Positions 4,514 through 32,000 of a stretch of DNA of 32,000 nt are shown here, piece after piece. The notes beneath the pieces are model-generated. The model saw nothing but the letters and a program-made list of their open reading frames with translations. It ran no database searches and was not told the DNA's origin. Position 1 is the stretch's first letter, and the number at the start of each line of letters is the position of its first letter. Origin of the DNA: Planctomycetales bacterium (GTDB taxonomy: Bacteria > 4484-113 > JAFGCY01). Where the stretch lies: assembly GCA_022646745.1 (NCBI GenBank), contig CP060262.1, positions 1,440,001 to 1,472,000 of the forward strand. The letters run 5' to 3'. The translations under genes and the position numbers were made by a program.

Positions 4514-4533
4514 GCAAAAACTGACTGAAAACC

Positions 4534-5622: not shown

Positions 5623-5689
5623 TCGCCCATTGATTCACGAATAAGCGGTTTATTCAGTCAGGATCGGCCTTCCGTCTTTGCGCGCATTG

Positions 5690-5695: not shown

Positions 5696-5702
5696 CGCAG
5701 CC

Positions 5703-7583: not shown

Positions 7584-7613
7584 GCCTTCAAGGGCATCTG
7601 CTAACCTATCCGT

Positions 7614-7642
7614 CCGCCCGTCGTGCGCGCTGCGGCGGGCGG
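7614..7642 (+). terminator. GC-rich hairpin downstream of the peptidase gene (possible terminator, no U-tract)
   Basis: CCGCCCG (7614-7620) pairs with CGGGCGG (7636-7642) around a 15-nt loop. No T-run follows, so it is not a canonical intrinsic terminator. Confidence 0.2.
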
Positions 7643-7656
7643 CCACTGGAGCACAT

Positions 7657-7869
7657 ATGAGCGAACAGGACCACAAGGACCCGGACGGCGTCGAGCTCGG
7701 CGAGGACAGCCTCGAGGGCCAGCGCGCCGACATCGAACGCATCAAGGACTACTGCCAGAAGCTTGGCGAGGGCATCTCGAACGCCGCCGACCTGCTGTTG
7801 CAGATGCGCGAGCAGATCGCGGAAATGGACATCCGCCTGCGCAAGCTGGAGGCAGCGAAGGACGAGTAG
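7657..7869 (+). CDS. Hypothetical small acidic coiled-coil protein (70 aa)
   Basis: Codons are strongly G/C-ending throughout. The C-terminal half (LLLQMREQIAEMDIRLRKLEAAKDE) looks helical or coiled-coil. The overlapping ORF 7623..7910 is Arg/Gly/Pro-rich junk. Confidence 0.55.
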   Translation: MSEQDHKDPDGVELGEDSLEGQRADIERIKDYCQKLGEGISNAADLLLQMREQIAEMDIRLRKLEAAKDE

Positions 7870-7878
7870 GCCGCAGGC

Positions 7879-14400: not shown

Positions 14401-15092
14401 TCGCCCATGCGCTGTGGTGCAGCCGGTGAGGACTGGATCACCTGCTGGATGCGCTCCTGATCCAGCGGCACCGGCTCAGTTTCCACCGTCTGGCTGATGT
14501 CCAGGTAGAAGTCGTAGGTCACCTCGCGCACCAGGCCCTTGTTCTCGCTGAGCAGCTTCTGCATCAAGGCATCGAGCTGGCTGACATCCGCCAGGCCCGG
14601 CACCTCGTAAGCGGTGAAATTGACATCCCTGTAGAACACGCGGCCGAACTCACTGAGGCCGTAATGCTGGGCGAAGTTGTGACTGACGCGGCGGTAGAAG
14701 GGATGGTCCACCAGCGGGTGGTTGTCCGTCGCCCGCCTGAGGTCCGCCTGCGCCCCGCCGCCCATGTACTGCTGCTGCACCGCCGGGTCGGGCTGGTTCT
14801 CCCAGACGACCACGAGGCGGTTGGCGGCGAAGTCCTGTCCGGCCCGCGCCGTGCGCCGAGGCAGTTCCAGCTCGGCCTCCGGGTCGGCTGCATTGCGCAA
14901 TCCGGCGAGGTTGGCCGGCTCACCGGGCAGGGCCAGCATGCCGGGGTCATCCACGAGGCCGGTGCTGCCTGCATCGTTGCCGAACACCGGGGCACTGCCT
15001 GCATCCGGTTCAGCACTGAGCTGCTGCTGCGAGGCGCATGCGCCGATCAACAGCACAAACAGGATCATAGGAGTGAAGATGCTTCGTTTCAT
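11421..15092 (-). CDS. Large exported S8 subtilisin-family serine peptidase lipoprotein with C-terminal beta-sandwich domains and an IPT/TIG-like domain
   Basis: Catalytic triad motifs appear in D-H-S order: VVVAVVDTGVRYTHEDL, DHGHGTYCSGIVGAVGNNG, GTSFACPYVAGCAALLW, plus the oxyanion-Asn region VVVAAGNNNWG. There are two MAM or choice-of-anchor-J-like segments (SNDWLYAPVIDLTGFASASLEF...MWIDDVHI and LGWLYSPLIDLSATVRPRIRL...GWSLDDIEV). The C-terminal IPT/TIG-like segment is GYPGQTVVLSGDKFG...VYVTVLGHESN. The start is taken at ATG 15092 (MKRSIFTPMILFVLLIGACASQ, lipoprotein signal), not 15194. Confidence 0.9.
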   Translation of the reverse strand: MKRSIFTPMILFVLLIGACASQQQLSAEPDAGSAPVFGNDAGSTGLVDDPGMLALPGEPANLAGLRNAADPEAELELPRRTARAGQDFAANRLVVVWENQPDPAVQQQYMGGGAQADLRRATDNHPLVDHPFYRRVSHNFAQHYGLSEFGRVFYRDVNFTAYEVPGLADVSQLDALMQKLLSENKGLVREVTYDFYLDISQTVETEPVPLDQERIQQVIQSSPAAPQRMGELNRSTSAAPNDPMHLNLSGSDGGTWANWRIGAIDGQAWDSGVGSHDVVVAVVDTGVRYTHEDLADNAIEPAAEFPYNEPGILTDVINKDNDPFDDHGHGTYCSGIVGAVGNNGLGLAGANQQVSILPVKVLSGGGSGSETQVAEGMLLADYLGADIISMSLGGDFPDRIMQLAAKQCDSDGVLVVVAAGNNNWGGLFYPAYYPECLGVGATTLVNDSNDQDFSQVDGEIPTADRYDARANFSNYGSWVDIAAPGVQVRSTSNGSDTSYGASGAGTSFACPYVAGCAALLWAHMGPDSSNHEVRGMLQGSATVMDHVNNGANPRGFIDNDTNGTVRFVNVWEAIKLYDAGPYEAPVVSWASPLEGATVSGLTDLQLEITGGSGNILKVSFETPTRHLGTVIAESGGFWQLNWDSAFEFNGGQTITATVTDDVGHIISLPLHVSCDNAHIVPEWQEGFDGLADDTLPAGWSVLDGNAGTNNTIWGADNSDGGDATPSMHSSGSTANYAPNSNDWLYAPVIDLTGFASASLEFNYLHRMANDGGFLFITADDETYAGDGFFGGGNPDWDSYSFDLTPFCGAEVRIFWVIDCNGGNQAGGMWIDDVHITVPEGTPPTVSIDSPLAAASVDGIVDVQLTLSDDTVAVELIGLPVGAPPVLFDSIPDNDLENPTKTFTASWDSRQTGTGTVLLRARAYDDESDNGGLDDLAAEDSVVLSVVNPVAGPGWLEDFEDVVDLGGTDNGQPDGEWFRIGADPLRWRTGTQAPWRGLNHAYFGPDGGGDYGNDALGWLYSPLIDLSATVRPRIRLHHSLDVDASNGDRAVVYMVRYDGTEVLEANLFEQRNDSAGYQPLLFNLDGMSQQPFRLLFLFDSDGNSQAGNGWSLDDIEVLDADPFLLGLTQPRGYPGQTVVLSGDKFGVLQEDSFVSFRSEGGGSTLATVSAWSNTEISVIVPPDADSGDVYVTVLGHESNARHFSRLLDPTELTGIGQFSLSDGI

Positions 15093-18103: not shown

Positions 18104-18197
18104 GCTGCAGACCGGACTGCGATGCAACTGCTTGTCCTGGTTTGTCCTGGGTTAGAATCTGTGCGGACGGAACCCGGTAAAGTGCGAGGACAAGCGC

Positions 18198-20291
18198 ATG
18201 TTCAGACAGCTCAGTGGCCTGCTGGCCGGAGCGATGCTGCTGCTGGCAGCCTGCTCCAGCGGAAGTGGCGGCCAGGTAAACCAGCCGACAGGCGACGCTG
18301 TCCTGCCGCAGCTTGAATCGCAGCTGCCGGCCATTTCTGCCCTGCCTGCCATGCAGCGCAGTACCAGCAATACGCCGGAAGCCTGCATCCGCACGGGAGC
18401 CGACATCTACAAGGTCTCGGCGAAGATGAATGCCGAGGTGACCGGTGACAAGCTCTCGATGAGCCCGACCTATGATCCGCAGGGCGACCCGCCGATGCAT
18501 GGACTGAGCTGGGGGATCTACGGTTTCAACATCGCAGACTACCAGCGCGGCACGGAGATCCAGGCAAAGTGGAATGGCACTGCGCCCGCCAGCTCCGGCA
18601 TCTACATCGGGGTCAGTGATTACTCCAGCGGACACTGGCAGTGGCGCCAGGGTACGGCGGACGGGACCGTGGACTTCCCGGGGCTGGCTGACTATTTCTC
18701 TGCCAACGGCGACCTGTATGTGGTGGTGCTGCTGGCAACGGAGGGCCAGTTCACCTTCGGCAGGCTGCGCCTCGGCGGCAACTTCCCGCCGGTGATTGAT
18801 TACACGATTGACAACGACAGCGCCCAGGGCAAGCTGACGGTCAACATCGATGCCTCCGCCAGCTACGATCCGGATGGCACTCTGACTTTCTTTGAATGGT
18901 CCGCCGAGGGTGGGCCGATCTTCGAGCCATCCGGTCCGTTCCTGTACTGGGAGTATGACCATGTCGGCGAGTACGACTGCATAGGCAGGGCGCATGACCT
19001 CGAAGGAGGGATGACTGAATTTGTCATCCCGATCAGCGTGACCCCCGTGCCTGGCAATGACCCGCCGGTGGCCGATATCTACTCTGAATCTGAAGTGGAA
19101 TCCGGCCTGGTGCCGCTTTCCGTCACGCTCAATGCACAGGACAGCACGGACCCGGAGAACGGTTTCATGACATTCCGCTGGGACATTGACGAGGACGGGT
19201 ACTTCGAGCAGTTCACCTTTGGCAGTCCGGTGTTCAAGGCTCTGTACATCGCAGCCGGCACCTACAACCCCAGCGTGATGGTGATTGATGAGTTCGGTGC
19301 CGTCGACACGGCCACGATGCAGATCGAGGTGCTGCCCGTGGAGGGCACGGAAGCTCCCGTTGCCAGACTGGAAGCCGTCTACTGGTATGACAACACTGCG
19401 GGAGAACGGTACTTCACCGCACAGGGATCCTACGACCCTGACAATGACATCGTGAAGTACGAATGGGACTTCGAGGGTGACGGCACGTTCGACGTTGATT
19501 CAGGGATCGATCCCGTGAATAACGTGACCTATTCCCAGGATGGCGGCGTGTTCAACGTCACTATGAGGGTCACTGACAGCGGCGGACGCAGTGACACGGC
19601 AACCTGCCCCGTAATGGTCACGCCATTCTCCGGCCAGCCGGAGCTCGAACCGAATGACAGCCCGGAGACGGCGATCAGCCTGGGCAGTTTTGGCAACGAG
19701 TGCGTGCGGGTGCGCGACTTTCCCGGCCAGCTCAAGTTCGCTGAGGATACAGAGGACTGGTATGTGGTCCATGCCGCACACAACGGCCAGCTGTGGTTCA
19801 ACCTGATCTTCACGCACAGTTTCATGGACATGGACATTGAGATGTACAGCCCTCTTGACCTGGTGAACCCGCTGTACTTCAGCTACTCGGATACCGACAA
19901 CGAGTTCATGTCCGTATTAATTACGGCACCGGGGGACTACTTCCTGCGGGTGTTCACCGACCAGGCAGGGGAGGCCGGGCAGGACAGCGGCTACAAGCTG
20001 GACTTCTGGGACCCCTCCAAGCCGGTGGCTTTCGTCACGGCCTCCGCAACGGTAGTGGAGACGGGGACCGAGGTTGTGCTCAACGCGGGCCGCAGCTATG
20101 ACCGTTACCTGGAGGGCCTGATCTACTTCTTTGACATGGATGGCGACGGGATCTTCGAGAGCGAGCCCGGCGGATGGCTCGGTACTGGCACCGTCAGCTG
20201 GGAAGGACCGCAGGAGCTCGGCGTCAAGGTACAGGACATGCTGGGAATGGAGTCAATCGCCACGGTGACAGTGACGGGCATCGCCCCCTGA
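18198..20291 (+). CDS. Paralog 2 of the lipoprotein family: N-domain, PKD x3, PPC, PKD (697 aa)
   Basis: Lipobox: MFRQLSGLLAGAMLLLAACSSGSGG. N-domain nt 18342-18779 (LSWGIYGFNI...YIGVSDYSSGHWQWRQG...RLRLGGN). PKD motif: DPDNDIVKYEWDFEGDGTFD. PPC: ELEPNDSPETAISL...TEDWYVVHA...GDYFLRVF. Confidence 0.9.
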   Translation: MFRQLSGLLAGAMLLLAACSSGSGGQVNQPTGDAVLPQLESQLPAISALPAMQRSTSNTPEACIRTGADIYKVSAKMNAEVTGDKLSMSPTYDPQGDPPMHGLSWGIYGFNIADYQRGTEIQAKWNGTAPASSGIYIGVSDYSSGHWQWRQGTADGTVDFPGLADYFSANGDLYVVVLLATEGQFTFGRLRLGGNFPPVIDYTIDNDSAQGKLTVNIDASASYDPDGTLTFFEWSAEGGPIFEPSGPFLYWEYDHVGEYDCIGRAHDLEGGMTEFVIPISVTPVPGNDPPVADIYSESEVESGLVPLSVTLNAQDSTDPENGFMTFRWDIDEDGYFEQFTFGSPVFKALYIAAGTYNPSVMVIDEFGAVDTATMQIEVLPVEGTEAPVARLEAVYWYDNTAGERYFTAQGSYDPDNDIVKYEWDFEGDGTFDVDSGIDPVNNVTYSQDGGVFNVTMRVTDSGGRSDTATCPVMVTPFSGQPELEPNDSPETAISLGSFGNECVRVRDFPGQLKFAEDTEDWYVVHAAHNGQLWFNLIFTHSFMDMDIEMYSPLDLVNPLYFSYSDTDNEFMSVLITAPGDYFLRVFTDQAGEAGQDSGYKLDFWDPSKPVAFVTASATVVETGTEVVLNAGRSYDRYLEGLIYFFDMDGDGIFESEPGGWLGTGTVSWEGPQELGVKVQDMLGMESIATVTVTGIAP

Positions 20292-20403
20292 ATGATCGCT
20301 GGCGGATTGCTTCCTGGGAAAGTCAATGATCGAGACTGATCGAGTAGAATTTTCCCAGCCTCCTGCACTGCCATAAGGAACCAGGCAGGTTCAAGGAATA
20401 AAG

Positions 20404-22518
20404 ATGAAAGCTCTTCTCGCCATCGCGTGCGCAGGCTGCCTGCTGCTCGCGGCTTCATGCAGCAGCCAGCCGGCTCAACCGGAGCAAGCGGCTGACCTGC
20501 CCGTTTCCGCGCAGGCTGAGGTTGTACAGCTCAGTCCCTCGCTGTCTGACGGGCTGCCGGGTCTGGACAGCCTGCCTCAGCAGCAGCGCAGCGCCAGCAA
20601 TGTCCCGGAGGACTTCCTGCGGGATGGATATCAGACTTATCAGCCTGATGCATTCGCCAATGCGAGCATTGTCGGGAACATGCTTGTGATGGTTGCGGAT
20701 TACGAGCCAGCGGCCGAGCCGCCGACACGTGAGCTGAGCTGGGCGATCTACGGTTTCAACATCACTGATTTCCAGCGCCAGCCGGAACTGCAGGTACTGT
20801 GGGAAGGCCCCAGGCCGGACGGAGCGCGCCACTACATCGGTGTCAGCGACTTCAGCAGCAATCGCTGGCAATGGTTCCAGGGCACGGATCAGGACATCAT
20901 TGATTTCGGTAGCCTTGACGGCTACTTCTCCGGGAATGGCGACATCTATTTCACCATCCTGGTCGCGGACAAGGGCAACTTCAATCTCAGCCGGCTGCGT
21001 CTGGGGGAGAACCTGCCGCCCGTGGCCAGCCTGATCCCGAACCAGACCAGTGGAACGGGCTCTCTGGAGGTCCAGTTCGACGCCTCGGGATGCCACGATC
21101 CGGACGGCAGCATTGCAGGCTACGAATGGTCAATGGAGGATCCGGACTACACGGATTTCCGGTACCCGGCCCCGGTGGTTTTCTGGACTTACGACCACGC
21201 GGGCGAGTACACCTGCACACTGCGCCTGACGGACAATGACGGAGCCACCGCCGAGCTCAGCATCCCGATTTCGGTCGCCCTGGTGGATGGCAACGCTGCG
21301 CCGCTTGCCTCGATCGTGCCTGACACCAGCGGAGGACCGGTCCCGCAGTGGATCAACTTCGACTGCAGCGGCAGCAGTGACACGGACGGCTCGATAGCCG
21401 GCTACCGTTTCGACTTCGACGGAGACGGGCATTTCGAGATTTTTGGCAGTGCCGTGCAGAAGTGGTTCTTCGCCGAACCGGGCAGCTATGAGATCTCCGT
21501 GATGGCGATTGACAACCAGGGCAGCTTCGGCACAGCCTCAACCACGGTGGTGATTGACCCGGTTGATGGTACTGAGCCGCCGACCATCGTCGTCAAGTCC
21601 GACTACAGCTTCAACTCACCGGGTGCCTTCAGGATAGACTGGAGCGAGAGCAGCGACCCCGACAATGACATCGTCTCGTTCGAGACGGACCTGGAGGGTG
21701 ATGGCATATTCGATTATTCTTTCGCCCCCGGTGAGGAATTCGTGGCGACCTATGCCCAGACAGGGCAGACTTTCAACGCGACATTCCGCGTGACGGACAG
21801 CGGCGGCCGGACAGACGTTGCCAGCATACCGCTGCGGATCGGGCCGAATTCCGGCCTGGCGGAAACTGAACCCAACGGTACCCCGGGCGAGGCCGAGGAG
21901 TTCACCGGCTTCATGAACTACTCCAAGGGGATCTGCAACTGGAAGGGCTCACTGGATGAGGGCGGCGGCGACAGCGCGGACTGGTACTCCTTCGAATCCG
22001 ACCGCAGCGGTCCAGTGGCGTTCGTCGCGGATTTCCTCCGCAGCGAGATAGACATGCGCCTGGACCTGTATTCCGCCGGCGACACCGACAACCCACTGGC
22101 CAGCTCCCACGGCATCGTGGACAAGGAAATCCTCAAGTTCGAGCTACCCGCCGCCGGCCATTACCTGATCCGTGTGAGCATAGATCCCTCAGCACTGGCG
22201 AAGGGCCCCGGTGACTACACATTCCGCTGCCGCAACTATGACGGCCCGCACGCCGCCCTGTCCGCTGATCCACTCTTTGGGTCGGTTCCATTTGACATTT
22301 CGCTGGATGCATCTGCCAGCACAGTTGAGATGGGCTACATCACTGAATACCAGTTTGATGTCGACGGTGACGGGATCTTTGAAGTGACCGGCCAGTTCCA
22401 GCCCACCTATGACACGCAGATCACAGTACCCGGTGCAATCGTCGTCAGCGTGCGCGTAATCGATGAGTGGGGCCTCGCGGATACAGACTTCGTCATAGTC
22501 ACTGCCTTGCCCATTTGA
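20404..22518 (+). CDS. Paralog 3 of the lipoprotein family: N-domain, PKD x3, PPC, PKD (704 aa)
   Basis: Lipobox: MKALLAIACAGCLLLAASCSSQP. N-domain nt 20572-21006 (LSWAIYGFNI...YIGVSDFSSNRWQWFQG...RLRLGEN). PPC: ETEPNGTPGEAEEF...SADWYSFES...GHYLIRVS. Confidence 0.9.
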   Translation: MKALLAIACAGCLLLAASCSSQPAQPEQAADLPVSAQAEVVQLSPSLSDGLPGLDSLPQQQRSASNVPEDFLRDGYQTYQPDAFANASIVGNMLVMVADYEPAAEPPTRELSWAIYGFNITDFQRQPELQVLWEGPRPDGARHYIGVSDFSSNRWQWFQGTDQDIIDFGSLDGYFSGNGDIYFTILVADKGNFNLSRLRLGENLPPVASLIPNQTSGTGSLEVQFDASGCHDPDGSIAGYEWSMEDPDYTDFRYPAPVVFWTYDHAGEYTCTLRLTDNDGATAELSIPISVALVDGNAAPLASIVPDTSGGPVPQWINFDCSGSSDTDGSIAGYRFDFDGDGHFEIFGSAVQKWFFAEPGSYEISVMAIDNQGSFGTASTTVVIDPVDGTEPPTIVVKSDYSFNSPGAFRIDWSESSDPDNDIVSFETDLEGDGIFDYSFAPGEEFVATYAQTGQTFNATFRVTDSGGRTDVASIPLRIGPNSGLAETEPNGTPGEAEEFTGFMNYSKGICNWKGSLDEGGGDSADWYSFESDRSGPVAFVADFLRSEIDMRLDLYSAGDTDNPLASSHGIVDKEILKFELPAAGHYLIRVSIDPSALAKGPGDYTFRCRNYDGPHAALSADPLFGSVPFDISLDASASTVEMGYITEYQFDVDGDGIFEVTGQFQPTYDTQITVPGAIVVSVRVIDEWGLADTDFVIVTALPI

Positions 22519-22640
22519 ACCATGCCAGGGGTAGCTGGGACCTGCTTGCCGCGAAGCTCAGTTTGGTGATTCTTTCAGCTAGAATTCTGTGCTGCCCCTC
22601 CAGCATGCTGGAGAGTATCCGGGCGCAGTGAGGAATAAAG

Positions 22641-24740
22641 ATGCGTGCTTCATTTGCCCTTCTGCTGGCAGGCTGCCTTTTCTGCCTGGCAGCCTGTTCA
22701 TCCGGCGCTGCCAACCTGCAGGAAAAGGCTGCCACGCCTGAGCGCCAGTCCGGTCCGGTTGAACTGCCGCAGGACCTGCTTGCCCAGCTTCCAGCCCCGG
22801 CCGAGCTGCCCGCCGTTGGGCGCAGCTTCAGTGATACACCGGCGGACTACATCCGCAAGGGTGCGGAGATCATCACGCCCGGCAGCCGCGAGAATGCGAT
22901 CGTGTTCGGGGACAGCCTGCTGATGGCCCCGGACTGGGACCCCGCCGCCAACCCGCCGAAGCTGGATGTGAGCTGGGGCATCTACGGTTACCACCTGCCG
23001 GGATTCGCAAGGGAGGCTCAGGTCGACCTGCAGTGGGGCGTGCGCCCGGACTCCGGCGAGTACTACGTCGGCATCACGGATTACGGCAGCGGCCGCTGGA
23101 AATGGCAGCTTGGCAATGACGATGACCACTTCGACTTCGGCTCGCTGGACGGCTATTTCTCGAACTTCGACGCGATCTACTGCTGCGTGTTGCTGACCGG
23201 CAGCGGCAGCTTCGAGCTGACCCGTGTGCGGCTCGGTGGCAACTTCGCCCCGACCGCCAGCTTCACCGTGGCCCAGGACAGCGGCCAGTACTTCTTCACC
23301 ACAGGGTTTGACGGCTCCGCCAGCTCCGACCTGGATGGCACGATCGCCGAGTACCACTGGTCATTCGAGGACCCAATCTACTTCACACCCGGTGACCTCG
23401 GGCCGACCCCCAGCCACGACTACGACCATGTCGGCACCTTCACCTGCACCCTGCGCGTGGTTGATAACGAAGGTGGCACCGGCGAAGCCACCGCCACGAT
23501 CAATGTGACCGGTGAACCGGGCAACCTGCCACCGATCGCGGACATCGTGGCCTTGCCGAACGGCGGTCCGCTGCCCCAGGCCATCAACTTTGACGCCTTC
23601 AACAGCATGGACCCGGATGGCGGCATCGTCAATTACCGCTGGGACCTTGACGACGACGGGTTCCATGAGCTGCAGACCCCGGTCCCCTTCGCCTACCGCG
23701 AATTCATCGAGGCTGGCACCTTCACCGTCGGGGTGATGGTGATCGATTTCTTCGGGGAAAGTGCCACGGCCACGACGGATGTCACGATCACTCCGATCAG
23801 CGGTGAGAACCCACCCACTGCTGAACTGAGCATCGACTACTACTGCCTGCAGAGCGGAATCATCCGTTACATCGACACGAGCGGCCTCGTGGACCCCGAC
23901 AATGACATCGTCAAGTACGAATGGGACTTCGAGGGTGACGGCACGTTTGACTATGACCTCGGCCTGAACCCCGGTGGTGACATCACCTACACGCTGCCCG
24001 GCGAATTCACGCCAACGGTGCGCATCACCGACAGTGGTGAGCGGGAGGCCACCGCCAGCCTGAAGGTGATCGTGTCAAACGGGGTGGACCCGCAGGAGAC
24101 TGAGCCCAACAATGCCGAGACGGAGGCGGACAGCCTCGGCGGTTTCCTCAACTACGCGAAGCATATCCGCGACTGGAGTGCTAGCGTCGGCGGCAGCGAC
24201 ACCGAGGACTGGTACGCGATCGATGCCGACCGGGCCACGACCGCCAGCTTCTGGGTGGACTTCAGTTCGGCGACGGTCGACCTTTCACTGGCTCTGTACC
24301 ATGAGTCAGACCTGGTCGTTCCGTTGATTGAATCGATTGACAACGTGGACCGTGAATACATCAACTTTGGCCTGCCGGCCGCCGGGCGCTACTACCTGAA
24401 GGTGTTCGTGCCCGGTTCCGCCATCGAGACCGGCCCGGGCAACTACAAGCTGACCTGCCTGGAGAACCATCCGCCCATCGCCGTGCTGACTGGATCACCG
24501 GACATTGGGTTTGCACCCTTGCTGGTAATGCTGGATGCCAGCCTGAGCTCGGACGATGAGGACGGGCTGTCGGTCATCTTTGACTATGACCTGGACGGTG
24601 ACGGCTTCTTCGAAACCACCTTTGAGAACAGCACGATCAATACGACCCTCGTCTCACCCGGGTCATACCCGCTTGCTGTGCGGGTAACGGATTCGCTCGG
24701 GGAAACTGACATCGCCTACAAGATAATCACCGTGAACTAG
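22641..24740 (+). CDS. Paralog 4 of the lipoprotein family: N-domain, PKD x3, PPC, PKD (699 aa)
   Basis: Lipobox: MRASFALLLAGCLFCLAACSSGAAN. N-domain nt 22806-23240 (VSWGIYGYHL...YVGITDYGSGRWKWQLG...RVRLGGN). PPC: ETEPNNAETEADSL...TEDWYAIDA...GRYYLKVF. Confidence 0.9.
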   Translation: MRASFALLLAGCLFCLAACSSGAANLQEKAATPERQSGPVELPQDLLAQLPAPAELPAVGRSFSDTPADYIRKGAEIITPGSRENAIVFGDSLLMAPDWDPAANPPKLDVSWGIYGYHLPGFAREAQVDLQWGVRPDSGEYYVGITDYGSGRWKWQLGNDDDHFDFGSLDGYFSNFDAIYCCVLLTGSGSFELTRVRLGGNFAPTASFTVAQDSGQYFFTTGFDGSASSDLDGTIAEYHWSFEDPIYFTPGDLGPTPSHDYDHVGTFTCTLRVVDNEGGTGEATATINVTGEPGNLPPIADIVALPNGGPLPQAINFDAFNSMDPDGGIVNYRWDLDDDGFHELQTPVPFAYREFIEAGTFTVGVMVIDFFGESATATTDVTITPISGENPPTAELSIDYYCLQSGIIRYIDTSGLVDPDNDIVKYEWDFEGDGTFDYDLGLNPGGDITYTLPGEFTPTVRITDSGEREATASLKVIVSNGVDPQETEPNNAETEADSLGGFLNYAKHIRDWSASVGGSDTEDWYAIDADRATTASFWVDFSSATVDLSLALYHESDLVVPLIESIDNVDREYINFGLPAAGRYYLKVFVPGSAIETGPGNYKLTCLENHPPIAVLTGSPDIGFAPLLVMLDASLSSDDEDGLSVIFDYDLDGDGFFETTFENSTINTTLVSPGSYPLAVRVTDSLGETDIAYKIITVN

Positions 24741-24793: not shown

Positions 24794-25192
24794 ATGAACA
24801 CCGTTGGACAGTACAACTGGGTGGCACTCTTCCTGCTGGGCGGGGCGGTGCTGATCGGGCTGGCATTCGCTTTCCTGAACCTGTGGCGTCCGCGGCGGCC
24901 GAACTTCCTCAAGCGCCTGAGCTATGAATCCGGCGCGCAGGCCACCGGTGACGCGCTGGTGCGCTTCAACATCCGCTTCTACATCCTCGCGATCGTGTTC
25001 CTCATGTTCGACGTGGACATCATGTTCATCTTTCCCTGGGCCACCGCCTTCCGGCTGCTGGTGTTCGGTAATGACGACATCACCTTCACGCCGATCGGGG
25101 CCGCCTCACTGGGTGAGATGTTCGTGTTCCTCGGCATCCTGCTCGTCGGCTGGGCCTATGCCTACCGCAAGGGAGCGCTGGAATGGGTCTGA
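24794..25192 (+). CDS. nuoA: NADH-quinone oxidoreductase subunit A homolog (ND3/NuoA family)
   Basis: Family hallmarks: SYESG, FNIRFYILAIVFLMFDVDIMFIFPWA, YRKGALEW. Three predicted TM segments. Overlaps the next gene by 10 nt. Confidence 0.9.
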   Translation: MNTVGQYNWVALFLLGGAVLIGLAFAFLNLWRPRRPNFLKRLSYESGAQATGDALVRFNIRFYILAIVFLMFDVDIMFIFPWATAFRLLVFGNDDITFTPIGAASLGEMFVFLGILLVGWAYAYRKGALEWV

Positions 25193-25635
25193 AGGACCTC
25201 ATCCGCGAGGCCAGTGCCCATTCCCTGTGGCCGCTGATGCTCGGACTGGACTATGCCACGCTGGAACTGTTCAGCGCGATCTCGCCGCGCTATGACATCG
25301 CGCGCTTCGGCTCTGAGGTGATGCGCCCCAGCCCGCGCCAGGTGGACCTTTTGATCGTGGCCGGCGTCGTCAACAACAAGATGGCCCCGGTGATCCGCCG
25401 GCTGCATGCCTCGATGGCCGACCCGGCCTTCGTGATGGCATTCGGCGCGGGGGCGATCAGCGGCGCGCCCTTCGACGGCAGCTATGCGGTGGACGGGGGA
25501 GTGGACCGCATCGTACCAGTGGACATCTATGTGCCGGGCGACCCGCCGCGGCCCGAGCAGCTGATCGATGGCATCATCGCCCTGCGCGAGCGCATCCTCT
25601 CGGGTGCGCTGGATGAGCGGTTTGCGTGGCGGTAG
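25183..25635 (+). CDS. nuoB: NuoB/PSST-family subunit lacking all four cysteine ligands of Fe-S cluster N2
   Basis: Family motifs are conserved: SLWP, RYDIARFGSEVMRPSPRQVDLLIVAG, NKMAPVIRRL, VPVDIYVPG-PPRPEQL. At the E. coli ligand columns, GLSCCYVE reads GLDYATLE (D23 Y24, nt 25249-25254), MGACA reads FGAGA (G90, nt 25450-25452) and PGCPP reads PGDPP (D120, nt 25540-25542). Confidence 0.9.
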   Translation: MGLKDLIREASAHSLWPLMLGLDYATLELFSAISPRYDIARFGSEVMRPSPRQVDLLIVAGVVNNKMAPVIRRLHASMADPAFVMAFGAGAISGAPFDGSYAVDGGVDRIVPVDIYVPGDPPRPEQLIDGIIALRERILSGALDERFAWR

Positions 25636-25654
25636 GATCGCATTACCATGAACC

Positions 25655-26452
25655 ATGAGTATCAAGGCCAGCTGCCCTTGTCAGGTCAGGGAATCACTCC
25701 CCTGGGATCCTGATCCTCCTGCAAGTGTCCGGGAGGAAACCCCATACTTCAAACTGCACAAGCTCATCATCCGCAGGGAAAGCTGGCAACGCGGAATCCT
25801 GCACATCTGCACCAGATGCAATGCCGACTGGTATCTCGATCATGCATCGGGATTTCTGCTCAGAATTCCGGCAGGCTGCCTGGATAAGGCCAGGTCCTGG
25901 GATGCCGGTATGGAGAAACCGGCGAAAGTGCTTGCGGAACTGCTGCTGAACATTGGCAGCGTTGGATTCGCGGCGTTTCAAAGGCGGATGAAGTGGCTGA
26001 TGTTCCCATGCTGTGTCAGGGATCATGCGGGCGTCTGGCATGAGAAGGCCTTTGTCATCCTGAGTGCCTCGATGCCCCTTCCCGAATGGCAAAAGGGAGA
26101 GTCTGCATTGTCGGATGCAGCGCATGTTGAGCAGTCAAGGTTTGCCCTGCCGCTGGATATCCGCAGGGAAAGCTACAATGCCATGGAGATTGCCATGGGC
26201 TTCAATCCGACTTCGATCCGGACGTCATCCGGCCGCTGTTTCAATCTCTGGCCAAACACGGACTTCATGGACAAGGACGGGATCATCGGATCTGAATGCA
26301 GCCTGGCAACAGATGTCGATCCGTTTCGCCTCAAGCTGCTTACAAGCAGCGAGCTGGGGCCGCGACCATGGCGGCGCAATGTCCGGAGGGTTGACTACCC
26401 GACTTTCCATGGAGAGCTGACGGAGGATTTTGAGGATCTTCTGTATTCATAG
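25655..26452 (+). CDS. Hypothetical protein with an N-terminal CxC...CxxC motif (265 aa), inserted inside the nuo operon
   Basis: Starts 19 nt after the nuoB stop. Cys7, Cys9, Cys52 and Cys55 (SCPC...ICTRCNADWY) could form a zinc-ribbon-like site. GC is lower (53% in the 25741-25800 sample). It uses AGG/AGA Arg codons and many A/T-ending codons, unlike flanking genes. I recognise no family. Confidence 0.5.
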   Translation: MSIKASCPCQVRESLPWDPDPPASVREETPYFKLHKLIIRRESWQRGILHICTRCNADWYLDHASGFLLRIPAGCLDKARSWDAGMEKPAKVLAELLLNIGSVGFAAFQRRMKWLMFPCCVRDHAGVWHEKAFVILSASMPLPEWQKGESALSDAAHVEQSRFALPLDIRRESYNAMEIAMGFNPTSIRTSSGRCFNLWPNTDFMDKDGIIGSECSLATDVDPFRLKLLTSSELGPRPWRRNVRRVDYPTFHGELTEDFEDLLYS

Positions 26453-26807
26453 ACTGGCTCGTCTCGGATTTCCCAGTGAATCAGTCAACCTGAAGAACAA
26501 GGGTCAGGGATACCGGAAGAACCGGCGCGGCCCAGCCGCGATTGGGAGGGGATGCAGCGAAGTCAGGGAAATGCGGGGACTGGAGCTGATCAGAAAACTC
26601 TGTGCGCTCGGTGGCTCTGTGTTGACAATTCTCCAGTTTGACTGGGCTGAGGCTAGCCTGCACTTGGTTGGCAATGCGGCTGGGGCGGAGCGATATTGGT
26701 GAACGCAGAGCCGCAGAGTCTGGCAATGAGTGTCGTCGGGCTCATTGCTTGCTCCGCATTGCTCATTGCAGAGGGGCTTTCCGCGTGGCTGCGCGCACGC
26801 GGCGGAG

Positions 26808-26853
26808 TGTGGCTCTTGAGAGCCACAGGGCCCTGTTGGTCTGCAGACCAACA
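26808..26853. repeat. Two adjacent perfect hairpins or palindromes in a non-coding stretch
   Basis: tgtggctc-ttga-gagccaca (26808-26827) has an 8-bp stem and 4-nt loop. tgttggtctgcagaccaaca (26834-26853) is a 20-nt perfect palindrome. Both lie 90-135 nt downstream of the stop of the minus-strand gene ending at 26944. No T-tract on either strand. Confidence 0.6.
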
Positions 26854-26943
26854 CACCATCACTCATTGCCTCGCGGCATGCTATCCCAGGCTCAGAGGGA
26901 CTGCGCCACAACTTCCAACAACCGGTCTCTGGAATCCTTGCAG

Positions 26944-27309
26944 CTACTTCTTCTTCGTCGGCTTGGCCGGCAGTGATGAGACGTAGTCGTAGGACTTCCG
27001 GAACCAGCTGCGCAGTGTGCGTGTGTTACCAAACAGTGCAGGCGGCACGGTGACATACTCCCGCTGGACATATCCGGGGATAGAGTGGTAGAGCCGGGTA
27101 CCGTACTTCTCGAGGAAGGCCTCACGCTCATCCTTCGCCAGCCGCAGGCCGATCTCGTTGAACTTCGAGATGCTGGAGTACATATTGCCGTTCAGTGAAG
27201 TGTAGGGAGCCGCCGCCCCCCTGGCCTCGACCCCCTCCACGCCCTCGATCATCTTCATGTAGGCCGCGAGCACTGCCGGGTCCACATCCGCAAATTTGTT
27301 CTTCGCCAT
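26944..27309 (-). CDS. Small hypothetical protein (121 aa from MAKNKF), possibly TfoX-N/YjbR-like
   Basis: Likely start is the ATG at the complement of 27307-27309 (MAKNKFADVDPAVLAAYMKMIEG...). The lysine-rich tail is LPAKPTKKK. Its resemblance to small TfoX-N-like proteins is from memory only. It lies opposite to the nuo genes it interrupts. Confidence 0.55.
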   Translation of the reverse strand: MAKNKFADVDPAVLAAYMKMIEGVEGVEARGAAAPYTSLNGNMYSSISKFNEIGLRLAKDEREAFLEKYGTRLYHSIPGYVQREYVTVPPALFGNTRTLRSWFRKSYDYVSSLPAKPTKKK

Positions 27310-27492
27310 GCCTGCCTCCGGGCTGATTCTAGCTTTTGCTGCAGGGCCTTGGAACAGCATTGGAAGCTGCCCCATCGGCTAGAATTACAGGAACCTTCTG
27401 CATTTGATATGTATAAGGTAACGCTGTGGGGCTTTTGATCGTTTATATCTGTATGCCGATTGCCGTAATCCAGCCAGGATGGGGAGGACTTG

Positions 27493-28074
27493 GTGCTCCC
27501 TGATGAGCTTGCCGGTCAGATCCGCGAGGACTGCGGTGATGTGCTGCTGCTGGACCCCGCCCGCGGCTGGGCGATCCTGACGGACAGCGGCCAGCTGCAG
27601 CTGGTCTGCCGCCAGCTGAAGAACATCGGCTTCATCCGTGCGCTTAACATGACCGCCAACCACCTCGGCGGGCCGGACTTCCACCTCTACCTGACGCTCA
27701 GGCACGGCAGGCGGCATGATGTCAGTCTCACACTGAAATGGAAATTCACCCTGCTGGAGGGCAATGCCCCGGCAGCGGACAGGGGTGGGGAGGATACTGA
27801 AGCAGCGCCGGCCTATGCCGGGCAGAGCGTGCACCCCAGCCTGAGCCTGATCTGGCGGGCGACGGAGCTGATGGAGCGCGAGATCTTCGAGTTCTTCGGC
27901 ATCCCCTTCGCTGGCAACCCGAACCTCATCGGGCTGATCCTCGACCCGCAGCTGCAGGGCTTCCCGCTCAGGCGGGAATTCCGGGCTGCCTCACATGAGA
28001 ACTACGCAGAGAACGTGCTGAAGCAGCGCGCCGACGCGGCAATGCGGGAGGTGCTTGATGACGCGCAGCTCTGA
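27493..28074 (+). CDS. nuoC: NuoC/30-kDa-family subunit homolog
   Basis: Conserved C-terminal core: WRATELMEREIFEFFGIPFAGNPNLIGLIL...GFPLRREF (canonical W..A.W.ERE..D.FGI.F.GHP.L.R.L...HPLRKD). GGGGAGGA (27481-27488) precedes TTG 27490 and GTG 27493. The exact start is uncertain. Confidence 0.8.
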   Translation: MLPDELAGQIREDCGDVLLLDPARGWAILTDSGQLQLVCRQLKNIGFIRALNMTANHLGGPDFHLYLTLRHGRRHDVSLTLKWKFTLLEGNAPAADRGGEDTEAAPAYAGQSVHPSLSLIWRATELMEREIFEFFGIPFAGNPNLIGLILDPQLQGFPLRREFRAASHENYAENVLKQRADAAMREVLDDAQL

Positions 28075-29209
28075 TCGCCGTGTTGAGATCCGCCGCGACC
28101 CGCTGCTGACGGAGAAGCTGGTCTACTCCGTCGGTCCGCAGCACCCAAGCCTGCCGAGCCCGCTGGAGCTGCGGGTACAGGCGGACGGCGAGCTGATCGA
28201 GCGCATCACGCCGGAGGTCGGCTTCATGCATCGCGGCGTGGAGCAGCTGGTGACCCAGCGCAACTACGCCCAGGCGGCTGGGCTGTTGTCCCGCTGCGAA
28301 TGGCTGGCTGGCAGCAACGCCGACTGGCTGGTGGCGGATGCCATCGAGCGCATCGAGGGGATCACTATCCCGGCCCGCGCGCAGTGGCTGCGCACCCTTG
28401 TGCTGGAGCTGAGCCGGATCGGCAACCACCTGTTCTGGTTTGGCAACCTCGGTCTCGAGGCCGGCGCTTATACCCCGATCTTCATCTCGCTGCGCGAGCG
28501 CGAGATGCTGCTCGACCTGCTGGAGATGCTCAGCGGGCACCGCCACCACCATGGCTGGATCGTGCCTGGCGGCGTGCGCACTGCCCCGCCGGAGGACTTC
28601 AGCGGCCATGTGCGGGCATTTTGCCTGTGGTTCCAGGGCCGGCTGGATGAATACGAGGACTTCTTCTCTGACAACGCAATCTGGATCAACCGCAGCGAGC
28701 TGATCGGCACGCTCGAGCCCGAGTTTGCCTTCGAGCATGGCGCCACCGGGCCGGTGCTGCGTGGCAGCGGGATCGCGCATGACCTGCGCCGCGACCAGCC
28801 CTATGCGATGTACGGCGAGCTGGACCTGCATGTGCCGACCGGAGAGTATGGCGATGTGCTGGACCGCTACCGCGTGCGCTTCGTCGAGATGCGCGAGAGC
28901 CTGCGCATCATCGAGCACTGCCTGGCTTACATTGACAACGGCGAGCTGCGCAATGCGGAAGTCAACCCGGACTTCGCGCAGATGGCGGTCTCGCGCGGCG
29001 AGGTCTACACGGCGGTCGAGAGCCCGCGCGGCGAGCTCGGCCTGACGCTCGTCAGCGACGGCACGAACCGCCCAAACCGCATGCACCTGCGTGCGCCGAG
29101 CCTGTACCACCTGTTCCTGCTGGACGAGCTGTGCCGCGGTTACCTGCTGGCGGACCTGTTCGTGATCTACGGCAGCCTCGACATCATGATCGGGGAGGTC
29201 GACAAGTGA
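28058..29209 (+). CDS. nuoD: NuoD/49-kDa-family subunit lacking the quinone-binding His and Tyr, with no NiFe Cys motifs
   Basis: Family motifs: VGPQHPS, GFMHRGVEQL, LELSRIGNHL, YGDVLDRYRVRFVEMRESLRII, ESPRGELG, LRAPSLYHL, GSLDIMIGEVDK. Against Thermus Nqo4, GPQHPSTHGV reads GPQHPSLPSP (P33 at the His38 column, nt 28154-28156) and RMDY reads RCEW (W82 at the Tyr87 column, nt 28301-28303). It overlaps nuoC by 17 nt. Confidence 0.88.
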   Translation: MTRSSDRRVEIRRDPLLTEKLVYSVGPQHPSLPSPLELRVQADGELIERITPEVGFMHRGVEQLVTQRNYAQAAGLLSRCEWLAGSNADWLVADAIERIEGITIPARAQWLRTLVLELSRIGNHLFWFGNLGLEAGAYTPIFISLREREMLLDLLEMLSGHRHHHGWIVPGGVRTAPPEDFSGHVRAFCLWFQGRLDEYEDFFSDNAIWINRSELIGTLEPEFAFEHGATGPVLRGSGIAHDLRRDQPYAMYGELDLHVPTGEYGDVLDRYRVRFVEMRESLRIIEHCLAYIDNGELRNAEVNPDFAQMAVSRGEVYTAVESPRGELGLTLVSDGTNRPNRMHLRAPSLYHLFLLDELCRGYLLADLFVIYGSLDIMIGEVDK

Positions 29210-30984
29210 TGCTCCCGATGCTGGCAATCCTGCAGCAGCGCTACGACATGGACGAGGCCCGCACCGTCTGGGAGGCGATGCGCGCCTGGCTCAATACCGA
29301 GCCGCTGCCCGGCCTGCGCTTCAGCCCGGAGGTTGCCAACGGCATCATGCTGGTGACGGCGCTCCTGCTGATCTTCCTCCTGGAGCTGATGATCACCATC
29401 GGCCTGCAGGTCTGGGAGCGCCGCCTGATGGCACGCATGCAGGGCCGCCGCGGCCCGCAGGAGTACGGCGAGGTCACCCCGCAGCGCTTCCGGCGGATCT
29501 TCATGCAGATCGGCGTGCTGATCGGCCTGCCCGCGCTGCTGTACGGCATCAACTACTGGACCGGCGGCACCGCCGGCTGGCAACAGTTCGGTGGCTGGAT
29601 CATCCTGTTCTTCGCCGTGGGCATGATGGGGCTGATCAACCGGCTGATGATCCTGCCGGCGCTCGGCCGGATGCAGGCCGCGCAGACCTCCGTCTGGCGC
29701 TTTCTGGCAACGCTGCTCTCGCTTTTGGCCTGGCCATCCCTCGCAGCCTGCGGCGGCATGCTCGTCGCTCTCCTGCTGGGCTTCATCCCGAAGGCGCACA
29801 TCCCCTTCCTGCCGCAGCTCACCGTACTGTGCACCGTGGTCGCCTTCGTGCTCTACATGAGCTACATGTTGCGCTACTACTGGCGCCAGGGCTTCTACGA
29901 CACGATCAAGATCTTCTTCAAGGAAGACACCGTCCCGCTCAGCGCTGACAAGCTCTTGTACCTGATCGCGCCGATCCTCGTCTACCTGCCGGCGCTGCTG
30001 AGCTGGGTGGTGATCCCGTTTGGCGTGGCGGCGGTCGACGGGCAGATCATCTACTACATGATCCAGGACCTGAACGTCGGCCTGCTTCTGATCATCGCCG
30101 ACTTCGCGATGTTCCTCGTGGCCGTGATCATGTCCGGCTACGCCTCCAACAACAAATATGCACTGGTCGGCGCAATGCGCGAGGCCGCCATGCTGCTGAC
30201 CTACGAGATCCCGATGCTGATGAGCCTCCTGTGCGTTGCCATCTTCGCCGGTTCGCTGAACCTGACGGAGATCGTGCAGCGCCAGACGATGACCTGGGGC
30301 ATCCTGCCGCTGTTCCCGGCCTTCATCATCTACTTCGTCGTCAGCCTGGCTGAGACCAACCGCCCGCCGTTTGACCTGCCGGAAGCGCAGAACGAGCTTT
30401 TGGGAGGTTACCTCGTGGAGTACAGCGGGATGCGCTTCGCGCTGTTCTACGTCGCCGAGTATTCGAACGTGTTCATCGTCAGCGCGATCATGACCGTCTG
30501 CTTCTTCGGCGGCTGGAAGGGCCCGATGTTCCTCGGCCCCGACGGGCTGTGGCTGACGAGCCTGTTCTGGTTCCTGCTGAAGACCTATGCCGTGTGCTTC
30601 TTCTTCATCTGGGCGCGTTCCACGATGCCGCGCATCCGCGTGGACCAGATCATGTTCTTCTCCTGGAAGTTCCTGCTGCCGGCCAGCGTGGTCGTGATGG
30701 CGGCCACGGCGCTCGGCGTCGTCAACCGCCATCCCTGGTTCAGCGCGAACCAGATCGCAGTGTCAGACGTTGACGTGACCGCTCTGCAGCGCGTCACCCA
30801 GTTCCAGACATTGACAACGGCCGAGGCACTGGCGGTGATGACAGTCCCCGAGAAGGCCTTCTTCTGGGGCTACAACGTGCTGTGCCTGTTCTTCGGACTG
30901 TTCATCCTGATGATGGCCTGGCGCATCCTGTTCGTGGCGCGCCGCCATCCGCAGCCCCGCCGGGAGGTGAGCTGGACCGGATGA
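29209..30984 (+). CDS. nuoH: Expanded NuoH/ND1-family membrane subunit (591 aa against about 325-350 typical)
   Basis: The core is conserved: ERRLMARMQGRRGPQ, IKIFFKEDTVPLSADKLLYLIAP, SGYASNNKYALVGAMREAAMLLTYEI, AETNRPPFDLPEAQNELLGGYLVEYSGMRFALFYVAEYSNV, MPRIRVDQIMFFSWKFLLP. The start ATG at 29209 shares its A with the nuoD stop (TGATG). There is an extra ~43-aa N-terminus, a ~140-aa hydrophobic insertion (aa 85-227, nt 29461-29889) and a ~80-aa C-terminal extension with one more TM helix. Confidence 0.88.
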   Translation: MLPMLAILQQRYDMDEARTVWEAMRAWLNTEPLPGLRFSPEVANGIMLVTALLLIFLLELMITIGLQVWERRLMARMQGRRGPQEYGEVTPQRFRRIFMQIGVLIGLPALLYGINYWTGGTAGWQQFGGWIILFFAVGMMGLINRLMILPALGRMQAAQTSVWRFLATLLSLLAWPSLAACGGMLVALLLGFIPKAHIPFLPQLTVLCTVVAFVLYMSYMLRYYWRQGFYDTIKIFFKEDTVPLSADKLLYLIAPILVYLPALLSWVVIPFGVAAVDGQIIYYMIQDLNVGLLLIIADFAMFLVAVIMSGYASNNKYALVGAMREAAMLLTYEIPMLMSLLCVAIFAGSLNLTEIVQRQTMTWGILPLFPAFIIYFVVSLAETNRPPFDLPEAQNELLGGYLVEYSGMRFALFYVAEYSNVFIVSAIMTVCFFGGWKGPMFLGPDGLWLTSLFWFLLKTYAVCFFFIWARSTMPRIRVDQIMFFSWKFLLPASVVVMAATALGVVNRHPWFSANQIAVSDVDVTALQRVTQFQTLTTAEALAVMTVPEKAFFWGYNVLCLFFGLFILMMAWRILFVARRHPQPRREVSWTG

Positions 30985-31451
30985 GGATGCTGTCAACGAG
31001 CCAGAACCTGCTGCACATCCTCGGTGAGCTGCTGCTCGTGGCCGCCGGGGCCTGGGGCCTGTACCTGCGCATCGTGCTCGGCATCGCGCCGGTGCTGACG
31101 ACGCAGTGGTTCGGTCCGCTGGCCCTGCTGGCGATCGGCCTGCTGCTGGCCGTGCTGCCGCTCACCCCGGCCCGCAATGCGGCCTGGATCAACCCCTGGT
31201 TCAGGCAGCGTCCGGGAGTCGCTTCACTGCTGTGGAGCTTCGCGGCCTGCGGCTGCCTGTATTCGCTGTGGCTGCAGTACGAGCTGCAGTTCACACTCAG
31301 GCCAGTGCTGCTCTTGGCGCCAGGCTTCCTTTACTGGTTCGTGGTGACGGCGCCGGGGCACCATGCCCAGCTGCGCAACATTGCCGCAGCCGGGGCGCAG
31401 GAGGCAGTTGCCAGCGAAGGACAGTCGGTGGAGGAGGTGCAGCGTGCCTGA
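30981..31451 (+). CDS. Hypothetical polytopic membrane protein (156 aa) at the position normally held by nuoI
   Basis: ATGA overlap with the nuoH stop (30981-30984). About four hydrophobic helices (LLHILGELLLVAAGAWGLYLRIVLGIAPVL, GPLALLAIGLLLAVLPL, SLLWSFAACGCLYSLWL, VLLLAPGFLYWFVVTAP). No CxxCxxCxxxCP ferredoxin motifs. GC3 is high. Confidence 0.65.
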   Translation: MRMLSTSQNLLHILGELLLVAAGAWGLYLRIVLGIAPVLTTQWFGPLALLAIGLLLAVLPLTPARNAAWINPWFRQRPGVASLLWSFAACGCLYSLWLQYELQFTLRPVLLLAPGFLYWFVVTAPGHHAQLRNIAAAGAQEAVASEGQSVEEVQRA

Positions 31452-32000
31452 CGGGCATGACCTGACAATCCACCATCCGCTGCCGAAGCGCTGGTTCGGC
31501 TACACCGCGATGGACTGGTTCAAGTTCTACGGCTTCATCGCCGTGTCCTGGTTCACGCTGGTGTTCGTCTACACGAAGTACGGCGCACTGTTTGATGACT
31601 ATGCCTCCAAGCAGCCCACCGAGCAGTACTCGCTGATGTGGTTCACCGCCAGCGGCCTGCTGCTGGCCCTGCCTGCGATCCTCGGCTTCTTCTGGTGGGC
31701 CTCCGGCGCGCTTGTGAAGTACAGCCGCTGGATGCTGCGCGACTTCACACTCTGGCGCCTGCTGCTGTTCGTGATCATCCTGTTCTTCTTCATCGTCGAG
31801 TTTGACCCGCTGGACCGGATCCACCCGAAGATGAGCGTGAAGGGCATCGCCGACACGCCGAACCTGACGCTGCTGCTGAGCGGCGAGGGCTTCGCGATCT
31901 GGCGCGAGACCGGCAGCCTCCCGGTGTTCAAGTTCCAGCTCGGCTATTTCCTGCTCTGGGCGCTGTTCTGGTTCCTGGTGTTCGTGCTCAACCTGAGTTA
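31444..32000 (+). CDS. Hypothetical polytopic membrane protein (partial, continues beyond the window)
   Basis: Absent from the ORF track because it has no in-window stop. I translated the frame from GTG 31444 to the edge and found no stop: VPDGHDLTIHHPLPKRWFGYTAMDWFKFYGFIAVSWFTLVFVYTKY...LWRLLLFVIILFFFIVEF...FLLWALFWFLVFVLNLS. It overlaps the previous gene by 8 nt. An alternative start is ATG 31510. It has no obvious resemblance to NuoI, NuoJ, NuoK or the NuoL N-terminus. Confidence 0.6.
   Translation, partial: MPDGHDLTIHHPLPKRWFGYTAMDWFKFYGFIAVSWFTLVFVYTKYGALFDDYASKQPTEQYSLMWFTASGLLLALPAILGFFWWASGALVKYSRWMLRDFTLWRLLLFVIILFFFIVEFDPLDRIHPKMSVKGIADTPNLTLLLSGEGFAIWRETGSLPVFKFQLGYFLLWALFWFLVFVLNLS

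Follow-up and report, generated by a model that had tools for sequence, protein, structure and literature searches.

A complex I-like operon from a Planctomycetales bacterium with no predicted ligands for the redox cofactors of its quinone module

Introduction

In respiratory complex I, the quinone chemistry of the peripheral arm powers proton pumps that lie up to 200 Å away, and the means by which it does so is the main open question about this enzyme. The locus described here raises a related question, namely what such a machine can do once the chemistry itself is gone. It occupies positions 24794-32000 of a 32,000-nucleotide stretch of DNA from a Planctomycetales bacterium (assembly GCA_022646745.1, contig CP060262.1, positions 1,440,001 to 1,472,000 of the forward strand); this whole stretch is called the window below. 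A first-pass annotation recognized a complex I-like operon and proposed that it encodes a repurposed relative of complex I that does not transfer electrons. Our analysis agrees with that proposal. The three iron-sulfur (Fe-S) cluster sites of the quinone (Q) module and the quinone-binding His and Tyr are predicted to be gone, and electron transfer is very unlikely. The operon probably encodes a functional derivative of complex I in which electron transfer has been wholly discarded and Q-module, coupling loops and proton pumps all remain. If this is correct, the peripheral arm has a redox-independent role, as a gate or as a ligand-driven piston, and the family provides, ready to use, a system in which the conformational coupling of complex I can be studied apart from its redox chemistry.

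Results and Discussion

Operon organization

The window contains the 5' part of an 11-gene operon with the order nuoA, nuoB, nuoC, nuoD, nuoH, X, Y (the nuoI homolog), nuoJ, nuoK, a nuoL-like gene and a nuoM-like gene. The part that lies in the window is arranged as follows (TM, transmembrane helix).

24794-25192, + strand: nuoA, 132 amino acids (Pfam Oxidored_q4, 9.8e-28)
25183-25635, + strand: nuoB, 150 amino acids (Pfam Oxidored_q6; alignment to 2fug_6)
25636-27489: variable gap between nuoB and nuoC, 1.85 kb
27490-28074, + strand: nuoC, about 193 amino acids, N-terminal half divergent (Pfam Complex1_30kDa, 9.1e-16)
28058-29209, + strand: nuoD, 383 amino acids (Pfam Complex1_49kDa, 2.5e-80)
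29209-30984, + strand: nuoH, 591 amino acids (Pfam NADHdh, 8.3e-97)
30981-31451, + strand: X, 156 amino acids, about four TM; no family match, homologs in loci L001, L007 and L012
31444-32000 and past the window end, + strand: Y, NuoI homolog, GTG start, first 185 of 331 codons (BLASTP, hhalign)

Gene order and overlaps are as first described, according to the open reading frame (ORF) listing, the Pfam matches and the gene calls on contig L013. This contig and a second one, L014, match the window at 100% identity over 8495 and 3231 bases, respectively. The Oxidored_q6, Complex1_30kDa, Complex1_49kDa and NADHdh models that had been suggested for checking the assignments all match in the expected ORFs. 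The description of the genes as tightly overlapping throughout does not extend to the insert between nuoB and nuoC, however, which holds a minus-strand gene. Y is found at positions 7939-8934 of L013, and its ferredoxin-like domain lies beyond the window end. Followed downstream on L013 and L014, as had been proposed, the operon continues with the rest of Y, nuoJ (348 amino acids), nuoK (161 amino acids), a NuoL-like gene (719 amino acids) and a NuoM-like gene (566 amino acids), and it ends at a convergent plsY gene. In the window and these identical contigs, the operon contains no nuoE, nuoF, nuoG or nuoN; the earlier claim that nuoEFG are missing therefore stands, and the nuoD stop codon overlaps the nuoH start. 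Each complete operon carries one NuoL-like and one NuoM-like antiporter gene, a count that refers to the operons only (a nuoN gene elsewhere in the genome is possible). Altogether, Pfam, NCBIfam and hhalign identify NuoA, NuoB, NuoC, NuoD, NuoH, NuoI, NuoJ, NuoK, NuoL and NuoM, encoded in one operon, as homologs of complex I core subunits. The two genes that follow nuoH were initially described as unknown membrane proteins. This is accurate for X, which has no family match, but Y is a cysteine-less homolog of NuoI.

The former cofactor sites

In an alignment with Thermus thermophilus Nqo6 (2fug_6), the N2 cysteines Cys45, Cys46, Cys111 and Cys140 correspond to Tyr, Ala, Gly and Asp in the window NuoB. 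The protein contains no cysteine at all, as the annotation of a NuoB without N2 ligands implied. By comparison, all four cysteines are present in 146 of the 150 best NuoB representatives from a collection of 1.84 billion proteins. Within a collection of 5.8 billion proteins, the cysteine-poor NuoB sequences form a group of 49 clusters with the pattern Y-x-G/N-D, and the next 72 matches all have the complete set of four. The Asp is found in every one of the 49 clusters and the Tyr in 47 of them; the second column is variable. One member, P0380 (154 amino acids, from a 503-nucleotide contig), has Cys, Cys, Gly and Asp at these columns and so keeps the tandem pair without the other two ligands. 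This pair may have survived from the ancestral state, or it may have arisen by reversion.

The first-pass annotation reported that no NuoI follows nuoH, a view that has to be revised in light of Y. On its own, Y has no Pfam, NCBIfam or significant PDB match in single-sequence and small-profile searches, and the traces are weak: a NuoI chain with E = 0.83 and, as the top Foldseek match, the NuoI homolog MbsN with E = 1.3. It is the long NuoI proteins of two related loci, L010 and L015, through which alone the homology is established. BLASTP aligns Y to the 345-residue NuoI of L010 with 2e-15, and a profile of 41 Y sequences matches the NuoI alignment over 288 columns, including the ferredoxin domain (hhalign probability 99.7%, E = 7.8e-26). 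Y consists of an N-terminal membrane domain followed by a ferredoxin-like domain devoid of cysteine. Aligned with the NuoI sequences of L009 and L010, it retains none of the eight cysteines of the two CxxCxxCxxxCP motifs, which bind clusters N6a and N6b. Its homologs make up 43 clusters, all of them within the clade described below and all annotated as hypothetical. Since NuoB has lost the N2 cysteines and Y all eight NuoI cysteines, the ligands of the three Fe-S clusters of the Q-module (N2, N6a and N6b) are predicted to be lost.

The quinone site has changed as well. Alignments show that the β1-β2 loop motif 'STHGV' of NuoD reads 'SLPSP' in the window protein and that 'RxDY' reads 'RCEW'. 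The quinone His is missing and the Tyr is replaced by Trp in all 38 full-length NuoD sequences of the clade, and both residues are kept in 76 of 76 canonical matches. The column of the His is relaxed within the clade (Pro, Ala, Thr, Val, Ile, Cys or Ser). Among the 93 NuoD columns that are at least 90% conserved in canonical proteins, 63 are unchanged, and five have switched and become fixed: V36P, D79S, D82E, Y83W and D135E. These are located in the two quinone-headgroup motifs, with the addition of Asp135, which we take to be the partner of the quinone His. The motif 'SRCEW' is nearly invariant. NiFe-type CxxC motifs are absent from both ends of the window protein; the C-terminus is free of cysteine and contains the stretch 'SLDIMIGEVDK'. 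Thus, the description of NuoD as having neither the quinone His and Tyr nor the NiFe cysteines is confirmed. The cysteine of 'SRCEW' was considered as a NiFe or alternative Fe-S site and rejected; it is a single residue, out of register with the hydrogenase RxCGxC motif.

Relatives and the order of loss

About 40-50 protein clusters share the traits of the clade. Its NuoD members share 55% identity or more with the window protein, after which identity drops to 46%, and they are monophyletic in 100 of 100 neighbor-joining bootstraps; like every tree in this work, this one is distance-based and was built without hydrogenases. The lineage is uncultivated; where the sources of the proteins are named, they are metagenome-assembled genomes labelled UBP7, 'Planctomycetales bacterium' or simply 'bacterium'. 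As a separate observation, NuoC varies in length, with 317 residues in L007 vs about 195 elsewhere.

The nearest outgroup comprises NuoD clusters P0043-P0047 and is represented by L010 (NuoD cluster P0045; GCA_030606285.1). Its operon follows the same abbreviated plan, nuoA, B, C, D, H, I, J, K, L and M, again without nuoEFG and nuoN, and it shares a membrane-anchored long NuoI, a loop insert in NuoA, a NuoK extension and a C-terminal extension of NuoH with the window operon. In L010, unlike the latter, no ligand is missing from NuoB (four cysteines), NuoI (both CxxCxxCxxxCP motifs) or NuoD (His and Tyr), and X and the NuoH insert described below are absent. We found no published description of this operon type either. 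A third lineage, L015, was found through NuoB cluster P0190. Its NuoB carries Glu, Asp, Gly and Ser at the N2 columns, and its NuoD has Trp in place of the His and Ile in place of the Tyr. Its long NuoI (13562-14626) keeps exactly four cysteines, the CP of the first motif and the CxxCxxC of the second, a set that would suffice for a single [4Fe-4S] cluster. L015 also lacks X. A neighbor-joining tree of eight concatenated subunits joins L015 to the window clade as its sister in 170 of 200 bootstraps and places L010 outside this pair. The series from L010 (all ligands) through L015 (ligands for one cluster) to the window clade (none) fits a stepwise loss, although long-branch effects or independent loss could also produce this placement of L015. 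The comparison suggests that redox chemistry became dispensable in this family.

These relatives also bear on the idea that the window complex is still a redox enzyme, using a non-canonical cofactor or a partner that is encoded elsewhere and docks on the peripheral arm. The fully redox-competent L010 likewise has no NuoEFG, so the family must already have relied on an external donor, and L015 preserves four cysteines for one cluster. In the window proteins, however, NuoB and Y are wholly free of cysteine, the N2 site has at most two side chains left that could act as ligands, NuoD has lost the quinone His and Tyr, and searches of X, Y and the neighboring genes detect no cofactor-binding domain. 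No path leads from any donor to the cavity, and we regard continued redox activity as very improbable.

Membrane arm

NuoH contains an insert of 139 residues (88-226) with about four TM, positioned between TM1 and the first amphipathic helix, elements that presumably frame the quinone entrance as in known complex I structures. This corresponds to the interruption of about 140 residues that had been noticed in the quinone-cavity loop, with the refinement that the insert sits at the quinone entry and leaves the TM5-6 loop intact. L001 has a shorter version and L007 one of about two helices, so that topology parity is kept; L010 and canonical NuoH have none. The window NuoH also has N- and C-terminal extensions. 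Its conserved charged residues are preserved, the sole change being a Glu-to-Gln substitution in the TM5-6 loop (EAE to EAQ).

Additional helices are found elsewhere in the arm. NuoJ has an N-terminal extension of about 120 residues with about four extra TM only in the subclade of the window (348 residues; L014 3670-4716); it is 227 residues long in L001 (14293-14976), L006 and L007. X is a clade-specific membrane subunit that always lies directly upstream of Y and matches no Pfam or NCBIfam model. In every subclade, the extra helices cluster around NuoH and NuoI.

Conversely, the conserved Glu and Lys residues of the proton pathways are retained in those subunits that were checked, with the NuoH Glu-to-Gln change as the single departure. 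The NuoM-like subunit aligns with its TM5 Glu, TM7 Lys, TM8 Lys and TM12 Glu in place, and the NuoL-like subunit with its TM5 Glu, TM7 Lys, TM8 His and TM12 Lys-Asp. Both glutamates of NuoK are kept. NuoA preserves the acidic pair of TM2 (FDVD), and the 'YECG' of its TM1-2 loop is matched by 'YESG'; the loop insert of NuoA is common to the window and L010.

Retained proton-pathway residues, together with the lack of an identified site for a second substrate, would be expected if the complex were a regulated proton conduit or a sensor of the proton motive force, in which the peripheral arm serves as a regulatory plug and no second ion is transported. Eleven subunits are a costly way to leak or sense protons, though, and most loci have no linked signaling domain; the histidine kinase encoded in the nuoB-nuoC gap of L002 is lineage-specific. 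We consider this explanation improbable.

Integrity and selection

All genes of the operon are intact in each of the more than 10 loci examined (L001, L002, L004-L007, L011, L012, L013/L014 and L015), and intact members reach down to about 55% NuoD identity. Pairwise ratios of nonsynonymous to synonymous substitution rates (dN/dS), obtained for four genome pairs, range from 0.05 to 0.39 for the ten Nuo-derived genes including Y and from 0.35 to 0.58 for X. After NuoA, the lowest values belong to NuoB (0.15-0.19) and NuoD (0.12-0.20). All 11 genes are under purifying selection. Furthermore, fixation extends to the replacements: Tyr and Asp in NuoB, Trp and Glu in NuoD.

These data address the possibility that the operon is a non-functional relic, decaying after the loss of respiration. 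Such a relic would have lost its cofactor ligands, as all of these have been, and would tolerate insertions, as seen in the nuoB-nuoC gap, in a toxin-antitoxin pair inside the L011 operon and in a split after nuoD on one contig. It would not be expected to remain intact at every examined locus, to keep 63 of the 93 conserved NuoD columns, or to gain a new subunit and new helices, and the dN/dS values already contradict decay. This explanation is the least credible of those considered. The first-pass annotation had argued from the intact ORFs that the locus was not decaying, and frameshifted remnants in sister genomes, which could have overturned that argument, are not seen at the loci examined.

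Comparison with known systems

The operon can be classified, from its sequence, as a derivative of true respiratory complex I that nests inside bona fide Nuo. It encodes homologous NuoA, B, C, D, H, I, J, K, L and M in canonical order, passes the NCBIfam NuoD equivalog and the NuoB and NuoM subfamily models, and finds its best solved-structure matches among complex I subunits; the proton-pathway residues that were checked are conserved. It differs from complex I in lacking the N2, N6a and N6b ligands, the quinone His and Tyr, and NuoN, and in possessing a NuoI membrane domain, two to four extra NuoH helices at the quinone entry and the additional subunit X. Judged by its predicted cofactors, it does not belong to functional complex I. 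For NuoD, solved structures of complex I score 265-282 bits, followed by MBS (210), MBH (154) and FHL (112). The NCBIfam NuoD equivalog gives 385 bits against a cut-off of 360, and the NiFeSe hydrogenase model only 19 bits. The NiFe CxxC motifs are missing from the window NuoD, and the complex is not a group-4 [NiFe] hydrogenase.

Ehr (energy-converting hydrogenase related) complexes, offered at first as the nearest published concept, turn out to be a poor label. They adjoin the group-4 [NiFe] hydrogenases and are assumed to be redox-active with a partner dehydrogenase. As in Ehr, we have a relative of complex I and group-4 hydrogenases whose large subunit is unable to bind NiFe and whose function is unassigned. 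However, the window family nests within Nuo, has NuoA, NuoJ and NuoK, and has lost the Fe-S ligands, and we conclude from these sequence features that it is not Ehr, as Ehr is described in papers other than the original one. MBH and MBS belong to the same superfamily, have a short membrane arm and carry out Na+-linked ion translocation, and MbsN is the top, though weak, fold match of Y. They nevertheless keep three [4Fe-4S] clusters and a catalytic site, and they match the window NuoD far more weakly than complex I does.

In the literature searched, we found no published description of a complex I relative without Fe-S ligands, in keeping with the first impression that the combination was new; subscription journals were thinly covered, and an earlier description is possible. 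The NCBIfam NuoB subfamily and NuoD equivalog models score above their cut-offs, and the proteins are consequently annotated in public as subunits of NADH-quinone oxidoreductase, the name they carry in the source collection. In metabolic reconstructions, these bacteria of activated sludge and sediment are probably assigned a respiratory complex I that they do not have.

Possible function

Without an electron path, only an ion gradient or the binding of a ligand can serve as the source of energy. Our preferred, though tentative, interpretation is that the complex would be a redox-independent ion translocator, most simply a secondary cation/proton antiporter of the Mrp type. Mrp is independent of redox chemistry and combines two antiporter-like subunits (MrpA and MrpD, related to NuoL and NuoM) with NuoK- and NuoJ-like elements. 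The L- and M-like subunits of the operon match the MrpA and MrpD models, and those of NuoL and NuoM more strongly. In such an arrangement, protons would enter through the two antiporter-like subunits and another cation would move through the NuoH/A/J/K region. X, the membrane domain of Y and the two to four extra NuoH helices, plus the NuoJ extension in the window subclade, would make this region larger, and the cofactor-less peripheral arm would act as a structural cap or gate on the channel. We favor the antiporter because the membrane core matches that of Mrp in composition, namely two antiporter-like subunits, NuoK and NuoJ, and because the NuoH/A/J/K region is where the added helices are concentrated. 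The loss of ligands in NuoB, NuoD and Y, the preserved proton-pathway residues, purifying selection, the conservation of a complete operon and the series of ligand loss from L010 through L015 to the window clade also count in its favor. The complex I superfamily is thought to have arisen from an Mrp-like activity, and an antiporter would represent a respiratory enzyme reverting to that ancestral state.

Several points weigh against this interpretation. None of the genes points directly to a transported ion. Mrp has no NuoH, NuoA or peripheral arm, and it is not obvious why NuoB, C, D and I should be needed for antiport alone. Even so, these four rank among the best-conserved genes of the operon (dN/dS 0.12-0.26), and the old N2 and quinone sites have acquired fixed new residues, which points to a pocket that is still functional. 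MrpB, MrpE, MrpF and MrpG have no homologs in the Pfam annotation of the L001 operon genes or among the Pfam results for X and Y. Outside the family, neither of these two proteins has a detectable relative. Finally, the survey covered operon loci rather than canonical complex I, Mrp or spare NuoN and NuoEFG elsewhere in the same genomes.

The conserved pocket is central to the main rival of the antiporter, a ligand-coupled machine in which a hydrophobic or small molecule would still occupy the remodeled quinone cavity, with no redox reaction, and its binding or release would be coupled to proton flow in the membrane arm. The roles of such a machine could include extraction or transport of a lipid-like molecule driven by the proton motive force, sensing of quinone or quinol, or a proton-coupled hydration or hydrolysis comparable to that of the CO2-hydrating NDH-1MS. 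The quinone site has been re-fixed rather than randomized (Tyr to Trp, Asp to Glu, and a nearly invariant 'SRCEW'), Tyr and Asp are fixed at the former N2 site, and only NuoA has lower dN/dS values than NuoB and NuoD. In addition, the coupling loops of NuoH (TM5-6) and NuoA (TM1-2) are conserved, and the NuoH insert is placed exactly at the cavity entrance. On the other hand, there is no candidate ligand, and neither a CupA- or DabA-like carbonic anhydrase nor any other enzyme domain is encoded in or beside the operon. The His column of NuoD is free to vary, and the fixed residues could just fill the space of the lost cofactors. Ligand coupling is, in our estimate, rather unlikely, and the antiporter stays ahead of it. 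If the old quinone pocket does bind a ligand, the complex would be a new kind of proton-coupled machine. Either way, a system in which all redox ligands have been removed, yet the Q-module, coupling loops and pump residues are held under selection, can be tested.

The nuoB-nuoC gap and flanking genes

The gap between nuoB and nuoC contains two ORFs.

25655-26452, + strand: 265 amino acids from the first ATG, 180 amino acids (25910-26452) in the L013 gene call; no Pfam or NCBIfam match
26944-27375, - strand: TfoX_N-like, 121-143 amino acids (Pfam TfoX_N 2.4e-6, below cut-off; L013 gene call)

The protein encoded on the plus strand is predicted to be soluble and is found only in the window, L002 and L013, with a distant homolog in L005. 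The TfoX_N-like ORF splits the operon into two transcription units and is unrelated to the complex. A scan of the gap for promoters and terminators gave nothing above shuffle expectation. The content of the gap changes between close relatives. L002 (gap 5312-9435) adds a minus-strand hybrid histidine kinase with PAS-HisKA-HATPase-REC architecture, and L004 (2733-9447) encodes secreted proteins that end in NPC repeats and form two duplicated pairs. The gap of L005 spans 4245-9447, and there is none in L001, L006, L007 and L015. The insert was considered as an extra subunit and rejected on account of this variability, and its initial inclusion in the machine is not upheld. The insertion in L011 is located at 13956-14569, between nuoH and the Y gene of an otherwise intact operon, and encodes an MNT/HepT (NTP_transf_2 / HepT-like) pair.

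Directly upstream of nuoA, the window encodes four tandem paralogous proteins with PKD domains (15281-24740; 940, 697, 704 and 699 amino acids), at least two of which have lipoprotein-like N-termini. A large PKD protein also follows the L010 operon (10480 onward). Farther upstream, at 7879-10218 on the minus strand, lies a gene for a 779-residue ankyrin-repeat protein. The local GC content is 0.53 (8001-10000) vs about 0.62 elsewhere, and the protein of this low-GC stretch may have been acquired horizontally.

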